The notes under the pieces were generated by a model. The model saw only the letters and a program-made list of their open reading frames with translations, made no database searches and was not told where the DNA came from. DNA of 53,536 nt. Origin: a bacterium. GTDB lineage: Bacteria > SZUA-182 > DTGQ01 > JAFGSM01. Below are positions 5,313 through 27,754 of this stretch, in pieces (within the stretch, counting starts at the first letter, position 1; each line of letters begins with the position of its first letter). The stretch lies in contig JBLIRP010000014.1 of NCBI GenBank assembly GCA_049472355.1, positions 1 to 53,536 on the forward strand, written 5' to 3'. The translations under genes were made by a program, and so were the position numbers.

Positions 5313-5882
5313 TTACCTCCCATGAATGATTGGAACTTCATGAAGTCTAATGTCCCTTTCCCGCACAATCTCCACCTTCCTCTCCCTCTTCGATTCGATA
5401 CGGGCCACCTGCACACAGTAGCTTATCGAGAGGTGGTATGGTCTGCGGAGTGCCCTCCATATCTTGAAGAGGTCTTCAATCGAAAGCGGTTCGAGAACAA
5501 TCCTCAATTGATGGGATTGTTGCGCTCCGACAGACAGCTCCTGATTTGAATAGTCATGAAAGATCCTCATCGTCTCTGTCAGGATTCGATGCGCATCCCT
5601 TTGCTCTTTGGCGTAAGGGGTGATCAGGTAATGGAGATTGAGAAAAAGGGGAGGATAGCGAAGGAGATTGTTCTCTTCCCTGATCCATGGTTGATTACGC
5701 AATTCAGCATTCTCTGAAATCCTATAAAGGAAGAGATTGATTCCCTGGGAATCATTTTCCATCTCTTCGGTAGGGGCCTTGAGGGTTACAGAGAATCTCC
5801 CTGAGGGGAGCTTGTCAATTTCCCCCTCCAGTAATGACACCAGGGTTATACTGATTGTCTCAATTACAGCACCATCATTCAT
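5313..5882 (-). CDS. CIS tail terminator/cap, Pvc16/Afp16-like (DUF4255)
   Basis: INLFLYRISENAELRN..PPLFLNLHYLITPY..LSIEDLFKIWRAL..PYHLSISYCV. Confidence 0.9.
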   Translation of the reverse strand: MNDGAVIETISITLVSLLEGEIDKLPSGRFSVTLKAPTEEMENDSQGINLFLYRISENAELRNQPWIREENNLLRYPPLFLNLHYLITPYAKEQRDAHRILTETMRIFHDYSNQELSVGAQQSHQLRIVLEPLSIEDLFKIWRALRRPYHLSISYCVQVARIESKRERKVEIVRERDIRLHEVPIIHGR

Positions 5883-6036
5883 AGATACACCATGAAATAA
5901 TTGAATAAATTAGTTTTTCTAATGTTGACTTCGTACGATCTCCCACATTCCCCCCTTTCCTGTAAGTTGCATTCACTGCGAATTGATGTTCCGGTGTCTT
6001 ACAAAATGTCTCTGAGGGAGACCTTCGCATATGCCA

Positions 6037-7059
6037 TTAGATCGCCGTGGATACCAAACCCCGGATCGCTCCGATGAGAATATAGATCGACCAGATGATG
6101 ACAATAATAGCTATGATAATGCCGATAACAGCGTCGGCTATGCTTGCAGCAAGTAGATACTTCGCGATAGGGAGGACAATCGTGATGATAATGCTCGTCA
6201 AGAATCCACAGAGAACAAAAAGGGTAAATGATTTGATCCGGATTATATGGCTCCCCCCTATCCAGATGAGAATGGCCGCCACGATCTTACACGTCAGACC
6301 TGTTCCTGCCAGGCTCACCACCCTTCCCGTCGGGAACGGAAACTCAAAGATAATGGGGTAAAGGAAGGCGAAAAACGAGAACAATAATATAAAAATAATG
6401 GTTAGTTTCAGAATTGCCTTTACGATCACAACGATCGAGACAAGGATAACGATCACCGCATTAATGATGCTTGCGATCATCCCGGCCCTCTGGATAGATG
6501 CCTTGGATACCGTCATTCCAACAAGGCTGATCAAAATGGAGAAGAAGATAATCCAGATAAAGAGGCCATCGGACTCAAGGCTGAATCCGGGTGGCTTTTC
6601 ACCTTTTGCATCAAGTTTTCCTTCATTCTTTGCCTTTCCAATACCCCCTTGAATACGTTCCCACTTCGCTGTAAGAACCTTGTCCTTGGCCTCCTCAATC
6701 ATCTTTTGCTCAGAGGATGAAAAATTTATTTCAACCACAATTGGTCCACTCTCACTATCTCCCTCTTCATCGCTGGGCTCTATCGTAAAGCCGAAAATCT
6801 CGAAATTTTCCTTTTTCTCCTCTATCGTTATGGTAAAGAGAGGGAATTGCTTCCCTGTTTTGACTGCTCTTTCAACCTCATCCTTAACATCCTCCCAATA
6901 TGACTTTTCAAATTCCTCTTTAGCCTTGGCCGCCATCTCCTGGAAGTTCGGTACAGGACCTCCGAACTCAATCCCGAAACCGATAAGGAGAAAAACCAAA
7001 GCAACGATGACAAAGGATTTCTTGAGGGGCTTTACTGTGGGTATTGTTACGGGACTCAT
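6037..7059 (-). CDS. Polytopic membrane protein (1 TM, soluble loop, then about 5-6 TM) inside the CIS locus
   Basis: Hydropathy pattern of the translation; ATG at 7059 (track TTG at 7065). Confidence 0.8.
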   Translation of the reverse strand: MSPVTIPTVKPLKKSFVIVALVFLLIGFGIEFGGPVPNFQEMAAKAKEEFEKSYWEDVKDEVERAVKTGKQFPLFTITIEEKKENFEIFGFTIEPSDEEGDSESGPIVVEINFSSSEQKMIEEAKDKVLTAKWERIQGGIGKAKNEGKLDAKGEKPPGFSLESDGLFIWIIFFSILISLVGMTVSKASIQRAGMIASIINAVIVILVSIVVIVKAILKLTIIFILLFSFFAFLYPIIFEFPFPTGRVVSLAGTGLTCKIVAAILIWIGGSHIIRIKSFTLFVLCGFLTSIIITIVLPIAKYLLAASIADAVIGIIIAIIVIIWSIYILIGAIRGLVSTAI

Positions 7060-7307
7060 AAGCAAATTGCCTTAAGAAGATGTTAAGGCACAAGAATCCA
7101 TGCCGATCCTGTGCTTTGGAGAAGATACCGGCAACGACCTTGATTTTTCGCATTGCGTCATCAGAAAACAAGGTGCCTATAATTATTAAATATATTCAAG
7201 CTATTAAAAAGATTTCTGCCATATATACTACTTTGTCAAATAGTAATCGACCTCCATTTATATAATATTAATCCATATCAACAATATGAATTTCAATAAA
7301 AAAACTT

Positions 7308-7751
7308 CTATACAAGAAAGACAATACCCACAATACCCAAAGCAACTCCTCCGACCATGAAAAAGATAATTCCAACCAAGTATCCCACATTATTTCTCTT
7401 CATGACAATATACTCAACCAACATAATAATAGTTGCTACTATAAAAACTATCCCGATTATCAAAAGGCCTAATCCCTTGCTCTTATCCTTTTTTGGTGGG
7501 GCATTAAATCTTTCCGGCCTTTTGCTCACATAATCCTTATCTATTGCATTGTTTTGGATTGAAAAAAATAATCCAGCACTATTTACAACTTCTGTTCTTT
7601 CTGCAGATATAAAATTATCAATAATAATCTGTGGCCGAACAGATTTATAAAGATTATGGATTTCTTGAGAATATACTATGCTTGAGATAACTCCTATAGC
7701 AATAATCAATGTAAGTATTATTAAAATGCTCTTGAAAAATATTCTATTCAT
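7308..7751 (-). CDS. AT-rich membrane protein (signal/TM plus two C-terminal TM)
   Basis: GGGAGG RBS; three hydrophobic segments. Confidence 0.7.
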   Translation of the reverse strand: MNRIFFKSILIILTLIIAIGVISSIVYSQEIHNLYKSVRPQIIIDNFISAERTEVVNSAGLFFSIQNNAIDKDYVSKRPERFNAPPKKDKSKGLGLLIIGIVFIVATIIMLVEYIVMKRNNVGYLVGIIFFMVGGVALGIVGIVFLV

Positions 7752-7896
7752 TTAATCCTCCCTTCCATATCTAAAAAAATATGTAAAGATTACTAATAAC
7801 TACTGCAATTACGCATACGTACTTCCTTGAATAATGTAAAAATACCAGGGCAGAGAAATAAAAAAACACAACAAGAATGCAAAAAGAATGATAGGC

Positions 7897-8004
7897 TTAT
7901 TCATCCTTTTTAAAGGGTTTTTTGATAAATCCTATAAACATACAGATACCAAAAATCCCTAATAATACCCCAACGATTATCCCAATAATCTCTAATGCCT
8001 TCAT
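7897..8004 (-). CDS. 35-aa single-TM peptide
   Basis: Hand translation MKALEIIGIIVGVLLGIFGICMFIGFIKKPFKKDE; G-rich RBS just upstream; below the ORF-track size cutoff. Confidence 0.55.
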   Translation of the reverse strand: MKALEIIGIIVGVLLGIFGICMFIGFIKKPFKKDE

Positions 8005-8096: not shown

Positions 8097-8750
8097 TCAT
8101 GGATTGCCCGATGCATAGGCCCACAGCTCAAAGAGATTCGCATAGTAAATCCATCCGAAGAACCCGCTGACAACGGACCTGGATGAAGGGCGGAAATATG
8201 GTTTTTCTCGCCCCTTGATGAGCCATAGAAGGCCACCTATGGTAAAGGTCCAGAGCAGTTGAATAACGAAGTTCACGACATAGTTGACACCGAATATAAT
8301 AAGATAGAGAGGGCCGAATATGCGGGCCTGCAACAAGTGCATCCGCTCATGCTGCCCGGCCCCACCGATATTGATGGTCCCGAGCGTCTGGGCAAACCCC
8401 ATGCTTCGTGTCGGCATGTAGACGATCCATCCGGAATCCCTGCTTCTGCTTCTTGAAATGTCGCCTAAGAAGGGATACACCAGGTTTCCAACGATGAACC
8501 CGAAGACCGTGTTAAGGAGACTCCATGTCATATCCACGAATACCTCCAACCACCCCTTGAAGGCTGAAAGATTGTATATGACAAGGATGCCTGCCTGAAG
8601 CCCGTATAAAAGCCCAAGAATCGCTCCGCCGATCACCATCCACATGGTGGGCGCCAGCCCTCCGAGTGGTAAACTCACAAGGAATAATGTCAGCGCTGCA
8701 AAACCTATTGAAAAAATAATTATTAAAGATCCCTTGACCCATCCCGGCAT
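8097..8750 (-). CDS. Membrane protein with HExxH metallopeptidase-like motif
   Basis: TM helices, then HERMHLLQARIFGPLY and a distal YYANLFELWAY. Confidence 0.75.
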   Translation of the reverse strand: MPGWVKGSLIIIFSIGFAALTLFLVSLPLGGLAPTMWMVIGGAILGLLYGLQAGILVIYNLSAFKGWLEVFVDMTWSLLNTVFGFIVGNLVYPFLGDISRSRSRDSGWIVYMPTRSMGFAQTLGTINIGGAGQHERMHLLQARIFGPLYLIIFGVNYVVNFVIQLLWTFTIGGLLWLIKGREKPYFRPSSRSVVSGFFGWIYYANLFELWAYASGNP

Positions 8751-9393: not shown

Positions 9394-12234
9394 CTACTGT
9401 TTTGGTACAACCGTAAAGGGTACGATCGGAATAACCGGTTTCAAAATCTTAATTGGTTGAAAAATCTGAAACGTTACAAAATAGAAATCGTCAAAATTTA
9501 TATGACCCCACGGCGGTTGAGATGCTTTATCCACAATTCTGAGTGTGGCTGTCTTGTTTACGTATTCCGTGAGGTTCCAGGTCACACGTTCCATTGTCTC
9601 AATATTCTTGCCTCGTGCACTTCTGACGACTTTACCGTTCACGAGAAGTTCTATCCCAACATCTTCTCTATTACCACCACCCACAAGAAAACTAGCCATG
9701 CCACTTTGGATCACAAAAGGATGTGAGGTAAGAATGCCTGTCGGTCCATCCCCTTGGAAAATTAATAAAGGATTTATAGATCCCTTATTTATAAATGACT
9801 GTGGATACCTCTCGTAAGTGCCAATCCAATATTGTCCTTGATGTTTTGAAGGTTGCCCCCGACCTCTCCTTGTAGGATTATCTCCATAGGTCGGCTGATC
9901 TTTAAAGGCAGTCCCTATTTGGGTCCAGCCAAGCAAGTTTCCTGACTCGAAGTTGAAATTCATGACTGTAAATACCTTTGATCCGGTCAGTTTCATATTG
10001 CCTGATTTGTCCCAGGCACGGGCCTCATAGTTTACATTGCCAATAGAATAGGGTCCCTTTGTACAGCTACAAGGTGTCTTGTCACATTCCTGGACCACTT
10101 CGCCGTTGACATAGATCTTTATGTTCTTTAAGTCCGTCGGATCTTTCACACTGGCAGTAAAGGCTACCTTTTGACTGAGGTTTACGGTAAAGGGACTGTG
10201 AGATATAGCGACATCAGGCGGCTTTTCGTCTTTTACCGTAAAGGTTAATAGTTGACTATCCCTCCTATTGTCTGATGAATCCCAGGCACTCGCCTTATAG
10301 GTTACCTTGCCGGCAGGATAAGGTTTTTCTGCATCATACTGACAGGGTGCATTGTCACATTGCTTGACCATCTTGTCGCTGACGAAGATCTGCACCTTGC
10401 TGATTTGCCCTCCCCCTCTGTCTGACGCTGTGGCTAGAAAGGTTACATTCTCTTCTGTGCTCGGCGTTTCTGGGAAATGGACTATCGTTACTTCAGGAGG
10501 CGTCGCATCGACTGTCATAAAACTTGTCTGTTCAGTCTTACCCTCGTTGCCTGACGTGTCCAAGGCATGCGCCTCACAGCTTATATTGGCAAGAGGGTAA
10601 GGTCCGGCAGCATATTTGCAGGGTGAACCGTCACATTCCTTAACCATCTCGTCGTTGATATAGATCTGGACCTTACTGATTTGTCCGCCCCCCCTGTCTG
10701 ATGCTGTTGCAGTGAAGGTTACCTCGTCTTCCGTGCTCGGCTTCGCAGGTTCATAGGTTATCATTACATCGGGTTTAGATCTGTCCATTGTATTAAAGGT
10801 ATTCGGGCCAACAATGGTAAGGTTGTTTGACCTATCCTCAGCACGGGCCTCATAGGTCACTTTACCAAGGCCAAGTAAATTAAAATCAGCGACATATTTA
10901 CAGGGTGAACTGTTGCATTCCTCAACAATATCACCTTTGACTAAGATCTTTATGTGCTTTAGGTCCGATGAATCTTTTACAGTGGCAGTGAAGGTTACCT
11001 CGTCTTCTGTACTCGGCTCTGAAGGTTCATGTGTAATAGTGAGTTCAGGTCCATCTTCATCCCTTGGCGTAAAGCTTTGCGGACCGGTATCGCCCTGGTT
11101 GTTTGACGTATCCCAAGCACGTGCCGCATAGGTTACGCTACCATGAGAATAAGGTCCAGCCACATGCTCACAGAGGGAACTGGTACATTCTTTGACCATC
11201 TTGCCGTTGATATAAATCTGGACCTTACTTATGCTTCCTCCTCCTTGGTCTGATGCTTCGGCAGTAAAGGCTACCTGGTCTTTTGTGGTTGGTGTTGGAG
11301 GGACATGTTTTATAGTGACACGAGGCGGTTTGCTGTCCACTATCGTAACACTCTTTTGGTCAGTATCACCTTTGTTGTTTGATTTATCCCAAGCGCTGGC
11401 TTTATAGGTGACACTCCCAAGAGAATAAGGTCCAGCGACATATTCACAGGGGGAACTGGTAGCTTCCTTAACCATCTCATCATTGACATAAATCTGGATC
11501 TTACTTATGCCCCCTGCGTCCAATGCTGTGGCAATGAAGGTTACCTCATCTTCAGTGGTCGGCTCCGGGGGACTATGGGTTACAGTGAGCTCAGGTGGAA
11601 CAATGTCTTCCACCTCAACAATCAGAGATTTTTCGGTATTCTTTTTCTCACCCTTCGCGGTTAATACATACTCTGTGGATTGGGTGGGCTCCACCTGTAT
11701 ACTTCCACTTGACTCCACTTCAACAGGCGCTATGTTCTGATCAAATGAGATCTCCACAGAGGTGGCTTTCTCTGTCTCCCAGCTCAGCATAGCAGATTCG
11801 CCCGCCTCAATAGTGTTGGGATCCGCTGAAAAACTTATAACCTTAGGCGCCCCAGAACGGAGGAGCAACCAGGCAATCACGCCGCCGACCAAGAGGACGA
11901 CCACGGCACTCCCAGCAATAATTACAGGAAGCCAGTTAAAGGGCTTTTTCTCTTTCGTTTCCGGCTCAAGGGCGACATCCAGATTAAAGGATCCCTCTGT
12001 GGCGAGAACACGGTGCTCTTGGATTTTGTAACCTTCCTTTTCAAAGGTTACCCTCAGTTGCTGGCCGGTCTCAATACGGGAATCTTCAATCTCTGCAATA
12101 AGCTCATAGAAGCCATTCTCCGCACTCTTGCCCTTTTGGATCTCTTCCTCGTTAAGGTAGAGTCTGACAAGCACGCCCGGCATGGCCTTGGCCGTTTTAC
12201 TTTCCTTTGCATATCCATAGGCTCGGAAACTCAT
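9394..12234 (-). CDS. Bitopic membrane protein: N-terminal carboxypeptidase-regulatory-like domain, TM, about 7 Ig-like repeats, C-terminal beta-sandwich (CBM-like)
   Basis: TM WLPVIIAGSAVVVLLVGGVIAWLLL after KEKK; roughly 90-aa repeats with Cys pairs; C-terminal FESGNLLGW..GDGPTGILTS..WGHINFDDF resembling accessory domains of GH32 enzymes. Confidence 0.85.
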   Translation of the reverse strand: MSFRAYGYAKESKTAKAMPGVLVRLYLNEEEIQKGKSAENGFYELIAEIEDSRIETGQQLRVTFEKEGYKIQEHRVLATEGSFNLDVALEPETKEKKPFNWLPVIIAGSAVVVLLVGGVIAWLLLRSGAPKVISFSADPNTIEAGESAMLSWETEKATSVEISFDQNIAPVEVESSGSIQVEPTQSTEYVLTAKGEKKNTEKSLIVEVEDIVPPELTVTHSPPEPTTEDEVTFIATALDAGGISKIQIYVNDEMVKEATSSPCEYVAGPYSLGSVTYKASAWDKSNNKGDTDQKSVTIVDSKPPRVTIKHVPPTPTTKDQVAFTAEASDQGGGSISKVQIYINGKMVKECTSSLCEHVAGPYSHGSVTYAARAWDTSNNQGDTGPQSFTPRDEDGPELTITHEPSEPSTEDEVTFTATVKDSSDLKHIKILVKGDIVEECNSSPCKYVADFNLLGLGKVTYEARAEDRSNNLTIVGPNTFNTMDRSKPDVMITYEPAKPSTEDEVTFTATASDRGGGQISKVQIYINDEMVKECDGSPCKYAAGPYPLANISCEAHALDTSGNEGKTEQTSFMTVDATPPEVTIVHFPETPSTEENVTFLATASDRGGGQISKVQIFVSDKMVKQCDNAPCQYDAEKPYPAGKVTYKASAWDSSDNRRDSQLLTFTVKDEKPPDVAISHSPFTVNLSQKVAFTASVKDPTDLKNIKIYVNGEVVQECDKTPCSCTKGPYSIGNVNYEARAWDKSGNMKLTGSKVFTVMNFNFESGNLLGWTQIGTAFKDQPTYGDNPTRRGRGQPSKHQGQYWIGTYERYPQSFINKGSINPLLIFQGDGPTGILTSHPFVIQSGMASFLVGGGNREDVGIELLVNGKVVRSARGKNIETMERVTWNLTEYVNKTATLRIVDKASQPPWGHINFDDFYFVTFQIFQPIKILKPVIPIVPFTVVPKQ

Positions 12235-13191: not shown

Positions 13192-14049
13192 TCAAATCTC
13201 AGGGAAATTCTTTACAGCATAAGGCCCCTGACGCCACCGTACAACAGATATCCAGGCATGGGCCGGCTTTACCTCGTCAATGATTTCTACCATGAATGAG
13301 AGAAGCGACCCGACCTGATCCTCTTCGACGGATTCATCGGTTGATAGATAGACGGTAAAGGTATTCTCCGCCTCTATGTTGGAATCAATGATACGGGTGT
13401 CGAGACCGATGGTCGATTCTATGCCAATGGCAAGGGTCGGAGCGAAGTTCTCGACAATTTCAATATGAATCCTTGCCCCTCTCTCCCTCTCTTCATATCT
13501 GGGGGCGCCACGGGCATAGTGTATGTGAACCTGGGAGGGGTCGATCCTTAAATATTCTGCGGCTGCCTGATTAAGTGCAAAAATCAATCCGGGAAGCGTC
13601 CCCTTTCCAAGTAAAAAGGAGGCTGCATATCGAAGTAACAGCCTCACCTTTCCCTCTTTCTCACAAGACTCCTTCGAAGACGACGCGTTCTGCTGGAGCA
13701 TCTCTTGATGCCAGGAACCTATCCACGGATAGACAGCGGCCGGATATGAATTGAGATTCAGGTTGAGCCAGCTTCCCAGACCAAGGAGATACTTGATCGG
13801 GGTCGTTTTCGGGCTAAAGAAACACTGGATGTGATCGATGGTTTCCTCAATCGGTGGATTAGGTATGTCAAAGGCATCAGGTTTATTCCCATGGCTTAAG
13901 TCGTCTGAGGGATACCCGGACCAGATCCGTTCAAATATTTTCAGGAAATTACCGAAAAAGGGATCATGTTGCAGTGCTTCATGATAAAGCGCAGGCAGGT
14001 GCTCCATATAGCTACTGTACGCGCCTTTATGCATGCCCTGGAGTCCCAT
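13192..14049 (-). CDS. Phage tail protein I (P2 gpI)-like baseplate wedge
   Basis: YMEHLPALY..FLKIFERIW..FSPKTTP..LGSWL..KGTLPGL..IDEVKPAH; ATG at 14049 just after the baseplate J stop. Confidence 0.8.
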   Translation of the reverse strand: MGLQGMHKGAYSSYMEHLPALYHEALQHDPFFGNFLKIFERIWSGYPSDDLSHGNKPDAFDIPNPPIEETIDHIQCFFSPKTTPIKYLLGLGSWLNLNLNSYPAAVYPWIGSWHQEMLQQNASSSKESCEKEGKVRLLLRYAASFLLGKGTLPGLIFALNQAAAEYLRIDPSQVHIHYARGAPRYEERERGARIHIEIVENFAPTLAIGIESTIGLDTRIIDSNIEAENTFTVYLSTDESVEEDQVGSLLSFMVEIIDEVKPAHAWISVVRWRQGPYAVKNFPEI

Positions 14050-17699: not shown

Positions 17700-18545
17700 T
17701 CAGTTGATCTTAACCAGATTCCCTTGAATGGTCAGCACTCCCCCGGCCTTGACCTCAAGAGAAGACTGGGATTCCATGGCAATCGGCCCCTGCGATGCCA
17801 CCTCTGTTGATTTGTATGACTTTACGTTGATGGTACTAGACCTGATATTAATCGACGACCTCGCCCGGATATCGACGTGTCGCGCATCTATCTTGAATGT
17901 GCCACGAGGGGCCTTTACTTCGACACTCCCCTTGCTGCTCTCGATGGTAATGAGGTTTGCGGCGGTATCGAGAGTTATACTGTTTCCCCCTTGGCTGTCG
18001 ATAATACCGATCTTTTCATTTCCTTTGGTGACTTCGATGATTATGTAATGCTTTCCCTGTTGAGCGCTCCTTAGCAGAATCTTTTCCTCGCCCTCCGTAT
18101 CGTCAAACTGGAGAATGCTTCCGCTTCGGGAGACGATAGAGCGGTAATTGTTTTTCCCATCCGGATCCATCTTTTCAGGCGGCTTTGCATCTTCGTGCCA
18201 GATGGCCCCAATCACATACGGTCGGTTGATATCGCCATTGTGGAAGGCCACGAGCACCTCATCGCCAGGTTCCGGCATGAAATACGCACCCCTGTTGGGC
18301 CCTCCCATAAAACTCGCCACAGGTGCCCATGCACTGTCGGATCGTCTTTCCCTGTCTTCATTAATCCCCTGTATGTTCTGCATTTCTCCCTCATCACAGA
18401 GCCATGGGAAATTCACCTTCACCCTTCCACGATCTTCGGGATCGTTAATGTCAACGACGGTGGCGGTGACAACCCCGCTGATCCTTTTCTGTGCCTCATG
18501 GATCGGTTCACGTTCCCTGATCAGTTCATAAAGAGTACCTGTCAC
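17700..18545 (-). CDS. Spike, gp5/gpV OB-fold plus beta-helix (C-terminal half of Afp8/VgrG)
   Basis: DPEDRGRVKVNFPW..GAYFMPEPGDEVLVAFHNGDINRPYVIGAIW; ends in beta repeats GNLVKIN. Confidence 0.92.
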   Translation of the reverse strand: MTGTLYELIREREPIHEAQKRISGVVTATVVDINDPEDRGRVKVNFPWLCDEGEMQNIQGINEDRERRSDSAWAPVASFMGGPNRGAYFMPEPGDEVLVAFHNGDINRPYVIGAIWHEDAKPPEKMDPDGKNNYRSIVSRSGSILQFDDTEGEEKILLRSAQQGKHYIIIEVTKGNEKIGIIDSQGGNSITLDTAANLITIESSKGSVEVKAPRGTFKIDARHVDIRARSSINIRSSTINVKSYKSTEVASQGPIAMESQSSLEVKAGGVLTIQGNLVKIN

Positions 18546-19669
18546 TCTCCCCTCCCCTTGGCATTACGCTGCACAAAAATCCTTGTTGAATACCCTGAAT
18601 GATCAATGGCATGGACCACCTTACTGACATAATAAGGCCCGCTCAATCTTGATCCAACGCCTTGGAGATCTATGATCTCCCCTGCCCTGATCTGCGGATT
18701 TCCTACGATATCTACAATACCGGTCAGGTATTCCAGGGTCTTTCCATTCATATATGATTGGGCAATCCATCTGGCACTGTAGTCATCCGGTATGGCGTGT
18801 ATATTGATGAGCTGTTCATACCTTTTCGCCACATCTGTAGCCGGCACCTCTCCCATAATCTTATTGGTTTCTATGGTGCTCACCGCTCCGATTATCGACC
18901 CGCTTCTCCCCCTTCGGCCTTCGATCCGGTCTGCCCGAACGGTAACCTGCGTGGGTATTCCCTGTGTTGTTATCCTGGAATAAAAGCCTTGGATGTCATA
19001 CCCCCACTTCAAGGTACACAAGGGATCCGGGTAGCGATGAATTTGAGGGCTCCTAAAGACCAGACAGTGCCGGCTCATCTCAGGCTCCCATTTCACCGAA
19101 TACTCCCACTGGATCAGGTCCGCCATTTCCTTCAGAAGCGAGGCATAGGATATGTGATTTTGCTGACGGGACTCGAATCTGAGGTCGCATTGTTCGATTC
19201 TTGCCGCAAAACCCATTTCATGAGCGATCATCTGAACGATGTTATGAAGGGTTTCGTTGGCCCATCTCTTGAGGTTGAGGGGAGCAGCAACCATTTCGAG
19301 ATCGTAGAATAGTGACTTTCCATTGATGGTGATAAGGAGCGAGCCTTCCTTTGAGAAGCTCGTTTCAATCGAGGCAATCCTCCCCTCAATCATGGGATAC
19401 AAATCCCCGAGATATCCCATCTGAATGCTCACTATTCCCTTCTCCGAAAGGAGTGCCGTATCCAAATATTCAAAATCCTTTCGATGGAAATAGCCTGACT
19501 TCCAGTGCTTGTGCCTGTCCACAAGGGTTATGGAAAAGGTGTCAGCCCCTTTGATATAGTCCTCAACCATTACCGACTGAATGACATCATTCTGCCCCAT
19601 CTGGAAGATATGACTCCCCACGGCGACATGATATGATGGAATGTAAATCGCTGCTGCATTCTGGGCCAT
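18542..19669 (-). CDS. Baseplate hub, gp27/late control D-like (N-terminal half of Afp8/VgrG)
   Basis: IQMGYLGDL..GNPQIRAGEIIDLQGVGSRLSGPYYVSKVVH; ATG at 19669 after GGGG RBS (track start overlaps the upstream gene). Confidence 0.88.
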   Translation of the reverse strand: MAQNAAAIYIPSYHVAVGSHIFQMGQNDVIQSVMVEDYIKGADTFSITLVDRHKHWKSGYFHRKDFEYLDTALLSEKGIVSIQMGYLGDLYPMIEGRIASIETSFSKEGSLLITINGKSLFYDLEMVAAPLNLKRWANETLHNIVQMIAHEMGFAARIEQCDLRFESRQQNHISYASLLKEMADLIQWEYSVKWEPEMSRHCLVFRSPQIHRYPDPLCTLKWGYDIQGFYSRITTQGIPTQVTVRADRIEGRRGRSGSIIGAVSTIETNKIMGEVPATDVAKRYEQLINIHAIPDDYSARWIAQSYMNGKTLEYLTGIVDIVGNPQIRAGEIIDLQGVGSRLSGPYYVSKVVHAIDHSGYSTRIFVQRNAKGRGE

Positions 19670-19680
19670 GCTATATACCC

Positions 19681-20307
19681 CTATTTCCCCCTCAACGGAG
19701 GGATATAGAGTCTGGTGCCGGATGCCAGAAAACGAGGATTCTCTATGCCATTGGCATCTGCTATTGGACGCCATTCTTGAGGATTGTTGTACATCTGCCA
19801 GGCAATGGCACTTAGGGTCTCCCCCTCCTTGACAACATACCATTTGGAGTAATCGGGTGACCGCTTGATCTCTTCAGCCCTACCGAAATAAAACTGCTTG
19901 AATCGGACATCGACAGAAGCGCGGACAGGTGTCCCATTCTCCATGAACATACTGTATTTCACCGTGGCCTCTTCAAGAACGGCGGTAAATTGAATGCCGA
20001 CTCCCCATGAAAAGAGAACAACAGGCGGCGCATGAAGCTCCGGATCGGACTCAATCAATGATAAAAGAGGCCTTACGAATTCGTCTCTTACATCGGTTTC
20101 CTCTTCAAAGGTGTCAAAGAACAATTGCATTGAGAGATACTCTGCCCCTCCCCGTATGAATTGGATAAGGGGCGCATCCAGACCAGGGATCTCCACATCG
20201 TGATAGAGATTGACCTTCTCGATCGCACAGTCGGATGGATTAAAGAGAACCTTGATCGGCATCCCGTACGTATTGATCGGAATGATTTCAGCCTTCTCGA
20301 GTGCCAT
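19681..20307 (-). CDS. Tube initiator with LysM (Afp7-like)
   Basis: VLFNP..LFFDT..LHAPPVVLFSWG..GTPVRA; LysM VKEGETLSAIAWQMY..WRPIADANGIENP. Confidence 0.93.
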   Translation of the reverse strand: MALEKAEIIPINTYGMPIKVLFNPSDCAIEKVNLYHDVEIPGLDAPLIQFIRGGAEYLSMQLFFDTFEEETDVRDEFVRPLLSLIESDPELHAPPVVLFSWGVGIQFTAVLEEATVKYSMFMENGTPVRASVDVRFKQFYFGRAEEIKRSPDYSKWYVVKEGETLSAIAWQMYNNPQEWRPIADANGIENPRFLASGTRLYIPPLRGK

Positions 20308-20310: not shown

Positions 20311-21633
20311 CTAAAGTAGTCCCTCCATACGTTCTCGTTCGCGAACGATTCTCCTCATCAATACATCATAGACATGATCTGCAATCCTTTGATAATCAAT
20401 TGAAACGCCCCGGTTCCGGGTATCTTTTCTCCTGCGCACGGGGCGAGTTGTCACCATGGTTTCAAGGACATCCGTTTTGTCAATCTCATCTGGGGCAGAT
20501 TGCGGATATCCCTGAGGATGGAGTTGGCCTGACTCGGAATGTTCCGCAACTCTTTTCTCAGTCTGGTCCCAAGGCGAAATCGGATATCCAGTATTCGCAT
20601 GGCGGGGATCAGCCATTTCCCGTCTCCCTGAAAAGAGAGGTACATAACCTTGAAGACGGCCCTGACGAGGTGCATTAATTAATATGGGAGTTCCGGACGA
20701 GCGCACATCTTCCACCCTTACAAAATGCCATCCCTTCTTCTCCTGCCCTATAACACCTATCCCTGTGGTGAATGTTCTTAGGATCGATGTCTGGTCAGTG
20801 ACCATTTCCGAATGAACCTTTGCACTCTTAGGGAGTCCGTTTTCTGATTCTGTAACGATCCTTTGATGATGCAGAAGAATATCATGGTTAATCAGAGCCC
20901 TTTCTCCTCCGGGGTTGCCCTCTTTAGACCCTTTCCCCTGATTGCGTGGATGATGAACGAAGGAGCCATTATTGTCTACCCCCTCTTTTCTCACACCCCG
21001 TATGATCCGTTCTGAATCGTATCCCGATGTTCCCCCGTACCCTTCGTGCCGAGGTAGCTGACGCACGACAACCGGCTTGAACGGAGCCTCGTCTCGTTTA
21101 CGGTACGTGCCCTGAGGGCCTTGCCAGATGGTGAACGGTGTGCCTTTATCCGAAGAGATGTTCAAGAGATAGTGCAGGGATGGTGATCCTTCTTGAGAGG
21201 GAGTGTGTATGTAATACCCATGGCCATATGGCGTACCCTTCTTATACAATGGCACCGTCGCTATGGCATATCCGTCTGATACGGACAATCCTGTGAGAGT
21301 CCGCTCCCAAGCCCGATTGAGGACAAGGGGGGAATATGCCGAATCACCAATGGAAGCGTCCTCTGCTTCGAAAAAACCTCGGCGATGAATCAAGAAGTTG
21401 AGCACTACGCCGAAATGGGCCAGGAGGTACTGGGCATTGATACGGTGGGCCACGCTGATCAAAATGGCTTTCCCCAACCTCAGCCTCAATGCGGTACTCC
21501 ATTGACTCAGACTGCGCAGCCTTGAGACAAGGATTTGCTGCCCTTGCCAGGAGATTAAATGATCTCTCCCCCATGGACGTCTCAACGTGGAGAAATAGGG
21601 ATTTTGGTATGGCAGTATATGTAATTTATCCAC
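20311..21633 (-). CDS. CIS-associated, largely disordered protein with C-terminal helix (possible tape measure/tube-associated)
   Basis: GTG start after GGAG; C-terminal DYQRIADHVYDVLMRRIVRERER; located between tube 2 and the Afp7-like gene. Confidence 0.6.
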   Translation of the reverse strand: MDKLHILPYQNPYFSTLRRPWGRDHLISWQGQQILVSRLRSLSQWSTALRLRLGKAILISVAHRINAQYLLAHFGVVLNFLIHRRGFFEAEDASIGDSAYSPLVLNRAWERTLTGLSVSDGYAIATVPLYKKGTPYGHGYYIHTPSQEGSPSLHYLLNISSDKGTPFTIWQGPQGTYRKRDEAPFKPVVVRQLPRHEGYGGTSGYDSERIIRGVRKEGVDNNGSFVHHPRNQGKGSKEGNPGGERALINHDILLHHQRIVTESENGLPKSAKVHSEMVTDQTSILRTFTTGIGVIGQEKKGWHFVRVEDVRSSGTPILINAPRQGRLQGYVPLFSGRREMADPRHANTGYPISPWDQTEKRVAEHSESGQLHPQGYPQSAPDEIDKTDVLETMVTTRPVRRRKDTRNRGVSIDYQRIADHVYDVLMRRIVRERERMEGLL

Positions 21634-21691: not shown

Positions 21692-22159
21692 CTATTCAAT
21701 AAATCCCTCATGGGAGAGTTCAAACGTTTCAACGGCGATCCTGCTGGCATCGGCCTTTAATTCAGGCCCTTCCCATTTTTGCGGCCAGCATCCCTTGAAA
21801 TTCCAACGGTTGACCTCTTCCATTCTCTCGTTAAATAGGATAATACTAACATTCTTGCGAATGCCCTTTCGGCTCGTGAGTGACTCCTTATACCAATCCC
21901 ACAGTGTACTGGAAATCGTTACTCCCTTCTTGAGGACAATGCGTTGATATTTTATCCTCCCCGGCAGGACATGAAGATGTCTGTTCATCCCACCCTCCGG
22001 ATAGGCATACTCTTCAATTTCAGCCTGAAGACCGCTGCATTGGAAGATTCCCACCACGGTATTCTCTATCTCCACGCCGAAGCGAAACGCAGTTAATGGA
22101 ATACCCTGGAGTTGGGCATTCTGTTCTGAAAGGTCGAGATTCTGATGAAGGTTATTCAT
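21692..22159 (-). CDS. Tail tube protein, T4 gp19-like (Afp5-like)
   Basis: FRFGVEI..CSGLQAE..EGGMN..LPGR..LKKG..WPQKWEGPELKA..VETFELSHEG. Confidence 0.93.
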   Translation of the reverse strand: MNNLHQNLDLSEQNAQLQGIPLTAFRFGVEIENTVVGIFQCSGLQAEIEEYAYPEGGMNRHLHVLPGRIKYQRIVLKKGVTISSTLWDWYKESLTSRKGIRKNVSIILFNERMEEVNRWNFKGCWPQKWEGPELKADASRIAVETFELSHEGFIE

Positions 22160-22162
22160 GAC

Positions 22163-22345
22163 TTATGATATTCTTCCGCCCGCGGCATCCTGGATCTTTC
22201 CGTTGATCTTTGAGACCTCGCCCACCCATCGGTTCCTTTCCCGATGATGCATGTCCATTATGGTCTCGTAATCCCAATGCAAGTAATACGATAGAAAGGC
22301 TACCTCCTCGTAGATTCTCTCAAGGGGGTAGCCTATGATTCCCCC
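22163..22345 (-). CDS. DUF6760-like chaperone extension, probably expressed by -1 frameshift from the upstream gene
   Basis: YPLERIYEEVAFLSYYLHW..RERNRWVGEVSKIN; no ATG before the conserved part; frame overlaps the upstream stop at a GGGGGAA slippery site. Confidence 0.7.
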   Translation of the reverse strand, partial: GGIIGYPLERIYEEVAFLSYYLHWDYETIMDMHHRERNRWVGEVSKINGKIQDAAGGRIS

Positions 22346-22698
22346 TGCTGTTCCAGCACCTCCTGAGAAAACTCTTTGCAGCAATGAGGGCACTTTATCA
22401 TTGCCTCTCCATTCCTATTGATTCGATTATAGAAACCTTGAAGATATGAGAGATCGCATGAAAAAAGGTTCTCAATGATTCCTGGATTAACCTCCTTTAA
22501 CTCCCCAAGCCTCATAATCACCCTTGATAAGAGTATGATTATGAGATATGCCTCATTGCGGGCAACCCTGGGGTCCTGTAGGGGAAGTATTTCATCCTTG
22601 GCGGTTGATAGGCGCATGGTGCCATGTTGGTGGATGTTTCCATCCTTATCAATAAATCCCTTAGGCAGGGTAAATTCGAACTCGGTTTGCAGGGTCAT
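22333..22698 (-). CDS. Tail assembly chaperone-like protein
   Basis: QTEFEFTLPKGFID..GTMRLSTAKDEILPLQDPRV..LFSCDLSYLQ..CPHC; AGGAGGAGG RBS. Confidence 0.88.
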   Translation of the reverse strand: MTLQTEFEFTLPKGFIDKDGNIHQHGTMRLSTAKDEILPLQDPRVARNEAYLIIILLSRVIMRLGELKEVNPGIIENLFSCDLSYLQGFYNRINRNGEAMIKCPHCCKEFSQEVLEQQGES

Positions 22699-22801
22699 CG
22701 ATTACACCTCCTCCTTAATCGGTCTCAGCAATAAGATCTGTTAGCGGATTTGTCAATCATTATCAATGCAGGCTGAGACGGACAGGGGATGATACAAAGG
22801 T

Positions 22802-23245
22802 TCAAGCCCGTTCGATACCTTCGTAACAGAAGGTCAATGTCTCCATTGCTATGCTGTCTCCATCCGCCTTTAGGGCTGGGTTGCTCGACTTGTTTGGCCA
22901 CGCCTGTCTCAGGTTCCAACGAATCTTATCCGCGCCCTCCTCATTTCTGATAATGATAGAGACATTCTTCCTTTCAACGTTTCCATCCATTACCTTCTTT
23001 CGCCATTCCCAGAGGGCATTGTTATCCACAATCCCTCTTTTCAGGGTGACGTCGCTGAAGTGCTTCAAACCGGGAAGCTTTTTGAGAGTACTATCCTTGT
23101 CATCTCCGATGCGATAACAAATGACGTCTGTCTCGGTTTCCAATCCTGAACATTCATAAAACCCACCCGTGATAAGCCCTTCAATCTCAATTAAAAAATT
23201 ATGATTCCTGTAAGGATCCTGATATGGTTCTGTGCGATCTGGCAT
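22802..23245 (-). CDS. Tail tube protein, T4 gp19-like (Afp1-like)
   Basis: DPYRNHNFLIEI..FYECSGL..KLPGLKHFSDVTLKRG..RKNVSI..AWP. Confidence 0.95.
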   Translation of the reverse strand: MPDRTEPYQDPYRNHNFLIEIEGLITGGFYECSGLETETDVICYRIGDDKDSTLKKLPGLKHFSDVTLKRGIVDNNALWEWRKKVMDGNVERKNVSIIIRNEEGADKIRWNLRQAWPNKSSNPALKADGDSIAMETLTFCYEGIERA

Positions 23246-23291: not shown

Positions 23292-24542
23292 TTATGCTTC
23301 AGCAACTGAGGTCCCTTCGCTCCATTGGGTGATGCGAAAGATAACAAACTCCGCAGGACGGGATGGCGCGATCCCAATAAGGATAACAACCTTCCCCTGT
23401 TGGACGATCTCCGGAGGATTGGTCTCTTCGTCGCATTTGACGTAGAATGCCTGCTGAGGGGTAGCCCCGACCAATGCACCGGAAAGCCATTGGGTATAGA
23501 GGAACTCACTGATGTCCCTGATAATCCTCTTCCAGAGACTTCTATCATTCGGCTCGAAAACCACCCATTGCGTACCCCGCGCAATGGATTCCTTTAGCAT
23601 GATAAAGAGCCTTCTGACATTGAGGTAGCGCCAACTGGCATCAGAGCTGAGTGTCCTCGCTCCCCAGACCCGGATCCCTCTTCCCGGAAAGGAGCGAATG
23701 CAATTGATGCCCTTGGGATTCAAGACCTCTTGTTCACCCTGGGTGATACTGTATTTCAAGCCCACGCACCCCCTCAGGATCTCATTGGCAGGGGCCTTAT
23801 GCACACCCCTCTCAGCATCACTTCGTGCATAAATCCCTGCTATATGACCACCCGGCGGGACAAAGATGTTTTCCTTCTTCACCGCGTCAAAAACCTGAAT
23901 CCACGGGAAATAATAAGCGCCATACTTTGAATCCCGCGGTTGAGTGTCCTTCAGCTTCGCAATATTGCCGTCAGGTAGATCTTCGGGGCAGTCGATGATT
24001 GCAAATAGGTTATTGTTTTCACAATAAGAGAGCACCTCATCCTGTATTTCCTTGTCAACCAATCCCGGGGCGCAGAGAATTGATATATCACTGAACTCCT
24101 TGAATGCATGCAAACCGGTGCGTGCTCCCGGACCTCCGTCACTCCCTTTTACAGCGGCTGTCACGTTGCCTTTCGCACTACCCGCGGCTGCTCTTCCTCT
24201 GGCCGTCCCCGCTGCTTCACCCTCCGCCGAAGCAGGCCGGGGTGCCTCGCTGCCGGGGGTTATTTTGTTCACATAGCATCGTCTCCCCCCATTATCGAAG
24301 AATCCGTAAACCGCATGGGCCAGGTAAGGAGCATTCGAGAAATCTCCGAATTTTGCGGTAAATTGGCTCCAATTGGTAATCAATTGAGGCTTGTTCGTGA
24401 GGTCTATTACCTCCTTTCCTTCCTTGTAGACAAAATTCGTCTCTCCGATAAACGCGGCGGTGCTTGTGCTAACCCCCTCAATCGGTCTTGGCCCTAAATC
24501 AACCTCTTCAACATAAACTCCTGGTGATAGATACTCTGCCAT
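23292..24542 (-). CDS. Contractile tail sheath (Afp2/3/4-like), single copy
   Basis: YLSPGVYVEEV..PIEGVSTSTAAFIG..YFPW..RGVHKAPANE..RVWGARTL..YLNVRRL..PAEFVIFRI. Confidence 0.97.
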   Translation of the reverse strand: MAEYLSPGVYVEEVDLGPRPIEGVSTSTAAFIGETNFVYKEGKEVIDLTNKPQLITNWSQFTAKFGDFSNAPYLAHAVYGFFDNGGRRCYVNKITPGSEAPRPASAEGEAAGTARGRAAAGSAKGNVTAAVKGSDGGPGARTGLHAFKEFSDISILCAPGLVDKEIQDEVLSYCENNNLFAIIDCPEDLPDGNIAKLKDTQPRDSKYGAYYFPWIQVFDAVKKENIFVPPGGHIAGIYARSDAERGVHKAPANEILRGCVGLKYSITQGEQEVLNPKGINCIRSFPGRGIRVWGARTLSSDASWRYLNVRRLFIMLKESIARGTQWVVFEPNDRSLWKRIIRDISEFLYTQWLSGALVGATPQQAFYVKCDEETNPPEIVQQGKVVILIGIAPSRPAEFVIFRITQWSEGTSVAEA

Positions 24543-24916: not shown

Positions 24917-24934
24917 ATGCAAAGGAGAGGCCAG
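24917..24934 (-). promoter_or_regulatory. Sigma-54 -24/-12 promoter
   Basis: Minus strand CTGGCCTCTCCTTTGCAT = TGGC-N7-TTGCA, with GG and GC exactly 10 nt apart, facing the sheath operon. Confidence 0.8.
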
Positions 24935-25222
24935 ATGTATTTTTGATAATTAATTGTTTTATAAGAATTTTTTTTCGCCTGAGGATAGGCACTAAGGGCA
25001 TCAGTCACCCCAATATGACTATGCACCAAAACGCACTGAAGGGCATTAACTTAGAGAGTAAATTTCTGATGACCGTTGAGTCAGTTTTCTATGACCCTCT
25101 ATGTGTTCACGTCCAAAAATGTTTTGCATCATCTCACTCCGAATCATTTATTTGATACGTTCTTGAGAGGAGCCCACTTTTTATGCCTTCCGAACCGATT
25201 TGCTGTCTGAAGGGCCAACTTT

Positions 25223-27754
25223 TTATTTCTTAAGCGGGCTTATAAGGCCTCTATTATACAAAGGAAGCTGCCTTTTATTTGTTTTCCCCGGTTCCTCTTG
25301 TTGCCCATTCTTTTTAGTGATTTTAGATTTTACATTGCCGGAGGACTGAACCTTACTCTGCTCCTTTGGTATCACAGGTGTGAAGGTCCCTGGTTTAGTG
25401 CCTGCGCCGGGCTGGATGCTGCCTTCTGAGTTAACAGCGTTCTGCTTCGAGGGTGATCCTTCGTTATCGGATTGACTTTTTTTAAACCCAAAGGACTTAA
25501 ACATTTTAGAGGAATCTGGTTGCGTCTGAAATGTGCTGCCCGATTTTGTATTCGTTTTTAAATCGCCGGGCGATTGAGGCGGGCCAGAGGAAGAATTCTC
25601 TATTGGCGCTATTCCTTTTGATTGTGGAATTTGTCTAGTAAGACCAAGTTTATCAGCGATTCCAGGTATGATTTTGGGCAATGGTTCTATTTTCTTAGGA
25701 TCAATTGGTGGTTGCGGCGGTGGAAGAGGGGCAAGTATAGATACCTTGCATTCCTTATCCCCACTTGTACCTTCGTTGCCACTTGTATCATAGGCACGGG
25801 CTTTATATTTTATAATACCGGAAGAGGTTGGCTCCACTATACATGTGCAAGGCGAAAACATGCATTTTCGAATCTCTTTGACCTTCATCTCTTCGGCTGT
25901 CCCCTCAACAAATATCTCAACAGCATCTATTCCCCAATCGTCCTCTGCCTCAGCAGTAAAGGTAATCTTCGAACCTTTACCCAGTAATGGGTTTTGCGGG
26001 GAGTAGGAAACGTTCACTATTGGTTTGGTTTTATCCGAAATCGCAAGGGTGTGGGACTCACTCTCGCCCCTATTTCCTGCCTCGTCTACGGCATACGCAC
26101 GATAGTTTACTTCTCCCGGGGGGAAGGGACCGATGCTGCATATATGTTGAAACTTTGAATCAGAACATATATATGAGTGATCCCTACCGTTCACCTGAAT
26201 CACCACTGTCTTTAAGTTCCAGTTATCTTCCGCCTCAGCACTCAACGCAACCGTATCTTCCGTCGTTGGGTATTGCGGAGAGCATGTGACCTTCACCAGA
26301 GGTTTGGTTTCATCCGTGACCGAAACCGTGTGGGACTCACTCTCACCCCTATTTCCTGCCTCGTCTACGGCATACGCACGATAGTTTACTTCTCCCGGGG
26401 GGAAGGGACCGTCGATATGAGCTTTCATAAAAGACGTACCGGAACACTTATGCTCCTTCTCATCCTTGCCGACCAGAATGACAAGTTTATTTAAGCCCCA
26501 CTGATCATTCGCCTCAGCGGTGAAGGTAACCGTATCTTCTGTCGTTGGGTATTGCGGAGAGCAAGAGATGATTACCGTAGGTTCGGTTGCGTCGGTGATT
26601 GATAGGATTTTTACCTCACTCTCTCCCCTATTGCCTGATCTGTCCTTGGCATTGGCAGAATATTGTATTGTTCCTGGTGAATATGGACCGCCTTTATAGA
26701 TACAAGAGGAGCCGATGGAGTCTGCGACCTCCCGGCCATTGATGAGAATCGCCACCTCTTCAACCCCCCATTTATCTTCAGCATGGGCGCTAAAGGTAAC
26801 TTCCTGGTCAGTTACAGGATTTGAGGGATTGGCGGATATTTTCACTATCGGAGAAGTTTTATCGGTTATTCTGAGATGCTCGGTAACGCCGAGTTTTCTT
26901 TCTCCCGCTCTATCATAGGCATAAGCCTCATAGCATATGTCGCCTGGAGGATATGGTCCACCCTCGTGTCTGCAGGACGAGCCCGTACCTTCCTCGACCT
27001 TTTTGCCGTTAACAAGAATCTCCATCCTGCTTATGTAATCGGAATCTGTTATATGAGCGATAAAGGCAACCTTCTGATTTGTATTCGGATTTAAGGGATC
27101 AGGGATGATGGTGAGTGTAGGCAATACACTCTCCCTTACCTCCAGGATTCGAGTCGCTGTGATGGATTCCTTTTTCTTATTCATTACTATCAATGTGTAC
27201 ACTGCGGTATTGCTCGGATGAACATCTATGCTGCCGCTTAACTCCAGATCTTTCATATTTGGATCAATTGCCACTGATGAAGCATTCCTCGTCCTCCAAC
27301 TGAGGATTGCTGTTTGCCCCTCTTTTATTGCATCAGGATCGATAGCAAAGCTGATAATCTCAGGAGATTTCGGCTTCAATGTCTGCCAGGCAATCACGCC
27401 ACCAACGAGAATGATCAACAGAGCCCCGCCGCCTATAGCCGCAGGTAACCATTTAATCCTTCGTTTGGGAGCAGAGACTTCAGCCTCAAGGGAAACATCC
27501 AGACTGAAAGAGCCCTCCAGGGCAGGCACATGGTGCTCTTGACGATGGTATCCCTCTTTCTCAAAGGTGATCCTCAGATCCTGTCCGCTCTTTATCTTGA
27601 CATCATCGACCTCTGCAATCACCTCAAAGAATCCGTTTTCGCCGCTCAATGTCCTCTGAAGCTCTTCTGTGTCAAGATGAAGCTTCACAAGGGCACCTAT
27701 TACAGGCATGCCTGTGATGCTATCCTTTATTTCTCCGTATCTTCTGCAGATCAT
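25223..27754 (-). CDS. Bitopic Ig-repeat membrane protein, paralogue of 9394-12234, with disordered Pro/Ser/Lys-rich C-terminus
   Basis: Same N-domain (ENGFFE..LRITFEKEGY..EGSF.LDV.LE), TM after KRR, about 6 Ig-like repeats. Confidence 0.85.
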   Translation of the reverse strand: MICRRYGEIKDSITGMPVIGALVKLHLDTEELQRTLSGENGFFEVIAEVDDVKIKSGQDLRITFEKEGYHRQEHHVPALEGSFSLDVSLEAEVSAPKRRIKWLPAAIGGGALLIILVGGVIAWQTLKPKSPEIISFAIDPDAIKEGQTAILSWRTRNASSVAIDPNMKDLELSGSIDVHPSNTAVYTLIVMNKKKESITATRILEVRESVLPTLTIIPDPLNPNTNQKVAFIAHITDSDYISRMEILVNGKKVEEGTGSSCRHEGGPYPPGDICYEAYAYDRAGERKLGVTEHLRITDKTSPIVKISANPSNPVTDQEVTFSAHAEDKWGVEEVAILINGREVADSIGSSCIYKGGPYSPGTIQYSANAKDRSGNRGESEVKILSITDATEPTVIISCSPQYPTTEDTVTFTAEANDQWGLNKLVILVGKDEKEHKCSGTSFMKAHIDGPFPPGEVNYRAYAVDEAGNRGESESHTVSVTDETKPLVKVTCSPQYPTTEDTVALSAEAEDNWNLKTVVIQVNGRDHSYICSDSKFQHICSIGPFPPGEVNYRAYAVDEAGNRGESESHTLAISDKTKPIVNVSYSPQNPLLGKGSKITFTAEAEDDWGIDAVEIFVEGTAEEMKVKEIRKCMFSPCTCIVEPTSSGIIKYKARAYDTSGNEGTSGDKECKVSILAPLPPPQPPIDPKKIEPLPKIIPGIADKLGLTRQIPQSKGIAPIENSSSGPPQSPGDLKTNTKSGSTFQTQPDSSKMFKSFGFKKSQSDNEGSPSKQNAVNSEGSIQPGAGTKPGTFTPVIPKEQSKVQSSGNVKSKITKKNGQQEEPGKTNKRQLPLYNRGLISPLKK
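26049..26411. repeat. 84-bp near-identical direct repeat (26049-26132 and 26328-26411), period 279 bp
   Basis: One mismatch seen; both copies encode GPFPPGEVNYRAYAVDEAGNRGESESHT. Confidence 0.9.

Follow-up and report, generated by a model that had tools for sequence, protein, structure and literature searches.

Membrane-bound contractile injection systems (CIS) are known from Streptomyces, with the membrane protein CisA (PMC12237407, PMC10020575), from haloarchaea (PMC11566945), from Anabaena (PMC8894136) and from Salmonella (10.1101/2025.06.01.657177), and unattached cytoplasmic CIS particles from Chloroflexota and Deinococcus (PMC12998442). In the compared systems that lack TssJLM, membrane attachment and the firing signal are still open: the CisA contact has been predicted only (PMC12237407), the haloarchaeal anchor localised only (PMC11566945), and Roseiflexus has no CisA homolog (PMC12998442). 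Single-pass proteins in the fibre slot have precedent (PMC12237407, PMC10020575), and fibre anchors have been catalogued (PMC12923769). Here we analyse the CIS locus of contig JBLIRP010000014.1, a bacterial DNA stretch of 53,536 nucleotides (hereafter the window) that is one whole contig of a 3.49-Mb assembly, 87.5% complete, and carries the single CIS of that assembly. We propose that this is a subtype-II CIS that is probably not released and is docked on the inner membrane by a dedicated two-part module, composed of a six-helix membrane protein and of single-pass proteins from the fibre region.

An earlier note on this DNA had suggested a docked CIS with a dedicated complex, and had counted four membrane proteins between the PAAR and Pvc16 cap genes. 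This interval holds three open reading frames (ORFs) of at least 70 aa (217, 147 and 340-342 aa) and a hydrophobic 35-aa ORF that may or may not be a gene. Only the 340-aa, six-helix gene is kept in both same-genus loci (genomes G003 and G004), from which the 217-, 147- and 35-aa genes are missing; the 147-aa gene is also absent from all 80 fetched loci. A four-protein membrane complex was rejected because three of its four genes are strain-specific, and what stands is a conserved membrane module of two gene types. The 217-aa protein has a homolog (77%) upstream of the six-helix gene in locus L041 and weakly resembles a gene in a Deinococcus CIS; an Atlas search returned unnamed clusters for it, the nearest named one (eCIS_core, at 0.87) being a lead only.

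Searches with the six-helix protein gave 35 close relatives beyond the protein itself and, with a profile, 286 clusters at E<=0.001, Chloroflexota and Myxococcota members among them. At almost all loci that were informative, the gene lies within or next to a CIS; these loci, which the counts below cover, come from the window's genus, Deltaproteobacteria, Deinococcus, Rhodovulum and Paracoccus. In both same-genus genomes the genes run Cis13, single-pass proteins, PAAR, 340-aa protein, cap. Of 18 close loci, which include many near-identical ones and stand for about four lineages, 17 have the end of a PAAR gene no more than ~310 nt before the six-helix gene; at the eighteenth (1,174 bp) a homolog of the 217-aa gene lies upstream of the six-helix gene. 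Deltaproteobacterial loci keep the order Cis13, single-pass protein, PAAR, six-helix gene, with spike and baseplate just 32-34% identical to those of the window, PAAR 76-78% and the six-helix protein 41-43%. Among 72,556 plasmid records, 126 carry a sheath at E<=1e-30 and six a distant six-helix member. In four of the five records examined (Deinococcus AJ005, two Rhodovulum and Paracoccus MC1862) this gene stands beside a full CIS; in the fifth, again from Rhodovulum, the copy is shortened, its neighbour is an Rhs-family gene and there is no CIS core, and the sixth record has a sheath match. In the class of genome G669 a six-helix match occurs in 8 of 401 genomes: six have it inside a CIS locus, and in the other two the contig ends on the side expected for the CIS, such that all six informative genomes are CIS-linked; matches were also found in two of 401 genomes of a broad sample, both from the window's genus, and in two of 401 from the phylum of genome G405. 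The gene is single-copy, present in all loci of the type and 70% identical in G004, versus 64-82% for the structural genes. The neighbourhood check proposed in the earlier note, in which a lack of conserved linkage would have counted against docking, thus finds the membrane module kept with the CIS across phyla.

The link with the spike tip is closer still in three 375-aa database proteins from different sources, in which a whole PAAR is joined by a short linker to the six-helix N-terminus; these fusions are known from database entries on contigs shorter than 3 kb. Programmed read-through joining the PAAR and six-helix genes was considered and rejected, the two being in frame only in two same-genus loci, by chance spacing in three more, and out of frame in most.

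The AlphaFold2 model of the six-helix protein is confident (pLDDT 89.6, pTM 0.79). A structure search over 48,161 chains returned CDF transporters as its first five matches (SLC30A10, Z 16.7, rmsd 2.6, 172 aligned residues; ZnT3, Z 15.2), the best unrelated row having Z 9.2, and Foldseek gave the same order of matches, more weakly (E 0.004); judged from the model, the protein adopts a CDF fold. Like YiiP and the ZnT/SLC30 proteins it would be a six-helix bundle with both termini inside; unlike them, it has no similarity in sequence to the family, no cytoplasmic C-domain, and a large variable outer loop after helix 1. The paired His/Asp metal motifs that are invariant in the CDF alignment are absent from the family in helices 2 and 5, which we take to be the equivalents of CDF helices 2 and 5. 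Conserved positions are an Asp at the start of helix 2 (89%), an Asp at the start of helix 6 (100%) and a Lys in helix 4, together with a His at the end of helix 5 in 67% of members, not in the window protein. No Pfam family is common to more than two of 147 aligned members, an Atlas search gave no usable match, and the genome carries a separate CDF-family match. Lys+Arg counts of 1.4 at the N-end, 2.0 in loop 4 and 2.1 at the C-end, versus 0.2 and 0.1 in loops 3 and 5, predict both ends to be cytoplasmic and variable loop 1 to be outside; by the same positive-inside bias, the PAAR-fused N-terminus would lie in the cytoplasm.

A single-pass protein fills the fibre region at every carrier locus. 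In the window, as the earlier note had described, a 946-aa membrane-spanning Ig-repeat protein directly follows the short fibre gene; it comprises an N-domain of ~92 aa (CarboxypepD_reg-like in homologs), a helix at 102-120, an Ig domain, six Ig repeats of ~92 aa and an unassigned C-domain, and is 38% identical to a second, 843-aa protein of the window. Homologs of a further pair, a 304-aa single-pass protein and a 112-aa exported protein, lie directly behind the six-helix gene in deltaproteobacterial loci (43% and 32-34% identity), so the module extends past the range 5313-27754 considered in the earlier note. Conservation in the window's group covers the N-domain and the helix and, in most cases, the first Ig domain. 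The outer part is variable and may consist of Ig repeats or of discoidin, CARDB or FG-GAP domains; one G004 protein with the CIS N-domain (L012 4195-4974, minus strand) has a phage tail-collar fibre domain (PHROG E 1.3e-9) directly after its helix.

The six-helix family tree splits (100/100) into a PASTA group and a Cis13-bearing group, the latter with the window and the G405 lineage. In PASTA-type loci the Cis13 fibre is missing; Cis12 is succeeded there by a protein that joins a beta domain of ~125 aa to PASTA domains through one helix, and this by an N-anchored exported protein. With a profile of eight PASTA-type helices, the top match among 2,778 genome ORFs is the 946-aa protein (E 1.4e-6, 24.4 bits, the next at 11.1), its 843-aa paralog being fifth (E 0.83); 20 column-shuffled profiles gave a best rank of 7 and 3.5 bits, and the reverse search placed three PASTA-type proteins on top, weakly. 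The transmembrane segment is thus common to both subtypes, with both flanking domains exchanged, which suggests a conserved partner in the membrane, for which the six-helix protein would be the obvious candidate. An intact Cis15 ATPase was found in none of seven carrier loci, one of them a partial stretch, versus 7 of 10 other CIS loci, four of which had supplied the queries. In G405 a 151-aa N-terminal ATPase remnant (L052 4905-5360, minus strand) precedes the cap gene, either a loss in progress or an assembly break; such ATPases are encoded elsewhere in the G669 and G004 genomes, and supply in trans is therefore possible.

The 271-aa Cis13 has neither shaft nor membrane helix and consists of an anchor domain and a small head only, in agreement with the earlier note, and no second Cis13-type fibre gene was found in the assembly, where the note had allowed for fibres encoded elsewhere. 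Positions 1-150 of NCBIfam CIS13_fam match it with E 4e-17, below that model's cut-off; the model fits Halogeometricum Cis13 at 579 bits, and the two Cis13 proteins match with 97% hhalign probability over 139 columns. Its low-confidence model (pLDDT 56.6) gives a shoulder weakly similar to TssK (Z 6.4-6.8) or to phage receptor-binding proteins, with Z under 8 and hence as leads only. A 404-aa protein, P0007, fuses the Cis13 anchor domain to DUF4159 (PF13709).

Table 1. Genes and features of the CIS locus and of the region behind the cap gene.
Feature	Position	Strand	Profile or remark
Peptidoglycan-binding endolysin-like protein, no signal peptide	2461-3429	-	PG_binding_1; PHROG endolysin matches on N-domain
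Predicted lipoprotein (146 aa) and 106-aa partner	4052-4831	-	lipobox by inspection
124-aa three-helix membrane protein, holin-like anatomy	4932-5306	-	no family
Cap Cis16 (Pvc16_N)	5313-5882	-	PF14065, E 8e-39
Six-helix membrane protein, unannotated CIS-linked family	6037-7065	-	database start ATG 7059, 340 aa
147-aa three-helix membrane protein	7308-7751	-	strain-specific insertion
35-aa hydrophobic ORF	7897-8004	-	G-rich ribosome site
217-aa membrane protein, HExxH	8097-8750	-	HERMH at 134; variable accessory gene
PAAR spike tip, 99 aa	8771-9070	-	PF05488; stand-alone, no extension
Single-pass Ig-repeat protein, 946 aa, fibre region	9394-12234	-	Big_7
Cis13, 271 aa	12292-13107	-	CIS13_fam; baseplate-anchor (shoulder) domain, ~85-aa beta-sandwich head
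Cis12-like small wedge protein	13192-14049	-	weak TIGR02242 / CIS12_fam
Baseplate J / Cis11, 1018 aa	14054-17110	-	PF04865, TIGR02243
gp25 / Cis9	17223-17660	-	PF04965
OB-fold spike, 281 aa, no C-terminal or toxin extension	17700-18545	-	PF04717, NF033848 (split spike)
Late-control-D-like hub of split spike	18542-19843	-	PF04717, NF033848 (split spike 17700-19843)
Cis7 tube initiator (CIS_tube and LysM)	19681-20307	-	PF19266, PF01476
440-aa poorly conserved protein	20311-21633	-	no family match
Two tube genes	22802-23245 and 21692-22159	-	PF06841 in each
Small ORF between tubes	22163-22393	-	
Tail-assembly-chaperone-like gene between tubes	22333-22698	-	
Sheath	23292-24542	-	PF04984, PF17482
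Second single-pass Ig-repeat protein, 843 aa	25223-27754	-	same N-domain and helix
304-aa single-pass protein and 112-aa exported CarboxypepD-like protein	29757-31011	-	

Comparison of the window proteins with Pfam and NCBIfam profiles places the system with Afp and PVC, not with phage: sheath, tube, Cis7, spike, gp25, baseplate J and Pvc16 cap are present (Table 1), and capsid genes are not. The tube region (21692-23245) is 52-58% identical to the same slot of other CIS and PAAR 74-89% identical to the PAARs of related loci; the Cis12-like ORF reaches 14166, and its homologs begin at residue 40. The full structural set of the earlier note holds for sheath, tubes, spike, PAAR, baseplate and cap but for neither the tape measure, none being recognisable in the locus, nor the Cis15 ATPase (PF22977), without match in the locus or the assembly. 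The note was right that spike and PAAR end bare, and too strong in excluding toxins, as the 217-aa protein and a 323-aa membrane protein bear HExxH motifs. Its failure to recognise TssJLM, TssA or ClpV is borne out: TssM, TssL and TssA have no family match in the genome, nor TssJ in the window, to which that search was confined, and the best ClpV match (854.6 bits, on another contig) is under the cut-off of 884.95. The hallmarks of the type VI secretion system (T6SS, i-iii), namely TssM, TssL, TssA and ClpV, were thus not found in this incomplete assembly, and the locus lacks the long shaft fibre, tape measure and Cis15 ATPase of the canonical released extracellular CIS (eCIS) Afp and PVC, the Afp locus serving for comparison. 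In trees run without the dbeCIS reference set, the window's sheath lies apart from the starred group that includes Afp and joins Streptomyces and Halogeometricum in a part of the tree without resolution, and its baseplate falls outside a group in which the PASTA-type loci (SH-aLRT 99) are joined with Streptomyces and D. grandis (95). A single origin of the carrier CIS was rejected, the carriers forming no single supported baseplate or sheath group.

The Streptomyces coelicolor CIS (with CisA/Sco4242 and Sco4256), of subtype IId, the clade of Streptomyces, Chloroflexota and Deinococcota, is like the window in gene order, in its small Cis12 and in a single-pass fibre-slot protein with a cytoplasmic N-part and an outward binding domain; discoidin-type outer domains are found in a Streptomyces fibre-slot protein and in a G004 paralog. 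As for CisA, the window's proteins are single-pass, have a cytoplasmic N-part by predicted topology, and are encoded behind the wedge genes. CisA differs in its unstructured, zinc-finger N-part, and no BLAST match at E 0.01 links the window proteins to a Streptomyces fibre-slot protein that we regard, from its position and domains, as the CisA homolog; homology to a Streptomyces ricin-domain membrane protein, taken as Sco4256-like, was sought and not found. Streptomyces keeps the ATPase and lacks Cis13, whereas the window has Cis13 and the ATPase was not found; among hits in the scanned loci, the Streptomyces locus has no six-helix match. The earlier note had called CisA an Ig-domain adaptor, a description not borne out by the published account, which likens the CisA outer domain to solute-binding domains and does not call it Ig-like (PMC12237407).

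The CIS of Halogeometricum borinquense (PMC11566945) shares with the window a homologous Cis13 N-domain, a sheath 55% and a PAAR 63% identical, and a six-helix membrane gene (putative anchor Hbor_38620) tied to a membrane-bound mode. The soluble loop of our six-helix protein is predicted outside, versus in the cytoplasm for the haloarchaeal anchor, and the archaeal locus carries ATPase and DUF4157 genes, unlike the window. The six-helix profile found nothing at E 0.1 on the whole plasmid pHBOR03, and the protein matched neither of two multi-helix genes upstream of the Halogeometricum CIS, which of them is Hbor_38620 not being pinned down. By sequence, then, no relation of the family to the haloarchaeal anchor or to TssLM can be detected, nor does the two-part module appear homologous to TssJLM, CisA or that anchor. 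TssJLM with TssK, the Salmonella system (SalCIS) and T6SS-iv of Amoebophilus, the latter reportedly so, resemble the window in combining an adaptor with a TssK-like shoulder, a weak likeness here, with single-pass and multi-pass inner-membrane partners; TssM, TssL and TssA of T6SS are unlike the window, where these families have no match. SalCIS belongs to clade Ib and has a three-helix hydrolase, unlike the window (10.1101/2025.06.01.657177). In the thylakoid CIS of Anabaena (tCIS) a short Cis13 likewise serves attachment and not long-range target binding, but bears its own membrane helix, whereas the window Cis13 has none and is followed by separate membrane genes (PMC8894136). Our literature search gave no paper that links CIS to PASTA adaptors or to CDF-like proteins, though supplementary gene-cluster tables could list the family.

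We infer docking, baseplate contact and trigger from this gene set as follows. The particle would assemble in the cytoplasm, stay in the cell and dock on the inner membrane from the cytoplasmic side, with its tip or baseplate leading, where the CDF-like scaffold of the six-helix protein would be the docking pad and may meet the PAAR tip. One to four single-pass proteins would pack against it through their conserved helix, their cytoplasmic domain holding the baseplate (Cis13 head or wedge) and their outer face carrying interchangeable domains for binding (Ig, PASTA, discoidin, CARDB, phage tail-collar), which may sense wall or surface ligands and on binding trigger contraction. Where the earlier note had seen the link in the short fibre, the spike-tip PAAR is about as likely to provide it.

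Several points weigh against docking by this module. The trees give the window no firm place within subtype II. The CDF fold has no counterpart in sequence, as none of 147 members matches PF01545 and hhalign gives 0.5%. In the window 1.7 kb of other genes separate PAAR from the six-helix gene, which in PASTA-type loci is not adjacent to the tip gene. A predicted complex of two six-helix copies with PAAR scored 0.49 versus 0.00 for the best control (0.02, 0.49 and 0.54 in the three runs), with contact agreement of at least 12% and partner pLDDT of at least 72. In the tool's calibration, passing scores of 0.60 or under were those of 18 of 157 solved complexes and of the only two mismatched pairs, among 215, that passed; passes in this range are more often wrong than right unless the pair is likely beforehand, and the present job differs from the calibration, so that contact with PAAR is weakly predicted. 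Short shoulder-type fibres are also found in systems classed as eCIS (PMC12923769), and endolysin-like, holin-like three-helix and lipoprotein genes lie behind the cap gene. The endolysin-like gene leaves open an ordinary eCIS, released by lysis and with a minimal fibre, whose membrane genes would serve immunity or release or be unrelated accessory genes on the island. Wall hydrolases (amidase, lytic transglycosylase) are carried by other loci also, minimal eBAP3 fibres exist (PMC12923769), and the small beta-sandwich head modelled for Cis13 could bind a target. We nevertheless consider such release rather unlikely, since no window protein matches a holin or spanin family, the hydrolase varies by locus while the six-helix and single-pass genes persist, PASTA-type loci are without any fibre, and no intact ATPase was found in carrier loci, though this can lie elsewhere in the genome.

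PAAR adjacency or fusion is the usual signature of spike-borne T6SS effectors, and this effector-like look also counts against docking. The six-helix protein could be a PAAR-delivered effector inserting in the target membrane and leaking cations, with the fusion as a PAAR-toxin; its transporter-like bundle with conserved Asp and Lys could form the leak, and the weakly predicted PAAR contact would fit. This is improbable: unlike polymorphic toxins, the protein is conserved to the degree of the structural genes, is encoded by a single-copy gene and is missing from no locus of the type; the window proteins matched no family of membrane-domain chaperones, and six strong helices with a signal-anchor should insert into the producer's own membrane. 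It is a little less probable again that the protein is a metal transporter or sensor serving the CIS, for instance by supplying PAAR with zinc or by giving an ionic cue to fire, with the single-pass proteins alone as tether, as proposed for CisA: the CDF fold recurs in three structure searches, PAAR has conserved His and Cys, and the His at one helix end is frequent, against which stand the missing His/Asp-x3-Asp motifs inside helices 2 and 5, the lack of a cytoplasmic C-domain, the separate CDF-family match in the genome, and the PAAR fusion, easier to explain by contact. We thus favour docking by the two-part module. A more tentative, and rather doubtful, generalisation would be a cross-phylum class of cell-retained CIS anchored at the PAAR tip, which binds an inner-membrane protein derived from a metal-transporter scaffold or forms one protein with it. 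Single-pass partners would place the receptor domains of the fibre on the far side, so that the membrane would in effect divide the fibre in two, and the cargo-loading ATPase would be dispensable.

As for the target of a docked particle, the chances are about even that it is the producer's own envelope, killing the cell under stress by analogy with Streptomyces; outward, T6SS-like firing is somewhat less probable, and display on lysed remnants, by analogy with Anabaena, quite unlikely. SIR2-like, STAND-WD40, caspase, patatin and protease neighbours lean to conflict or programmed death, without deciding between producer and neighbour.

GC content is 45.7% in window bases 800-44000 versus 55.4% beyond and 54.0% in the genome, so the CIS sits in an island. 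Behind the cap, the endolysin-like protein has no match in 80 fetched loci nor the 124-aa holin-like protein in the fetched loci, and the lipoprotein and its 106-aa partner are kept in G004 (59% and 57% identity). Directly behind the endolysin-like gene, at the island end, SIR2-like and membrane-anchored response-regulator-like proteins (823-2403, minus strand) resemble a defence or conflict pair. The island also encodes a 1281-aa nSTAND1 NTPase that has WD40 propellers and a single helix, then a 182-aa helical protein that shares its N-terminal motif (33858-38223, minus strand). A TPR protein with a probable barrel, a FecR-like protein and a Calx-beta repeat protein are encoded in one run (38230-43209, minus strand) and likely act together in signalling or export at the envelope. 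The presence of lipoprotein and FecR-like genes suggests a diderm envelope. Directly upstream of the first Ig protein lies a sigma-54 activator whose N-terminal input domain is almost absent (28171-29238, minus strand), and other CIS loci are likewise flanked by sigma-54 activators; a single loose sigma-54 promoter match at 24933, upstream of the sheath, was set aside. The G004 locus has none. The 323-aa HExxH protein stands with 128-aa and 120-aa membrane proteins (31277-33685), the latter having a homolog near the six-helix gene in locus L035 and a partial second copy at 33014-33190. G004 itself holds three different CIS loci and a partial TssM match (contigs C97, C73, C101 and C16), and G006, of the same order, three CIS loci (contigs C63, C33 and C26).

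The locus supplies a named candidate module that predicts a mode of action from sequence, and the six-helix family is also found in cultured bacteria that are non-pathogenic, on plasmids of Rhodovulum sulfidophilum, Paracoccus and Deinococcus. The reuse of a transporter fold as a docking pad for a spike tip would, if true, be new.

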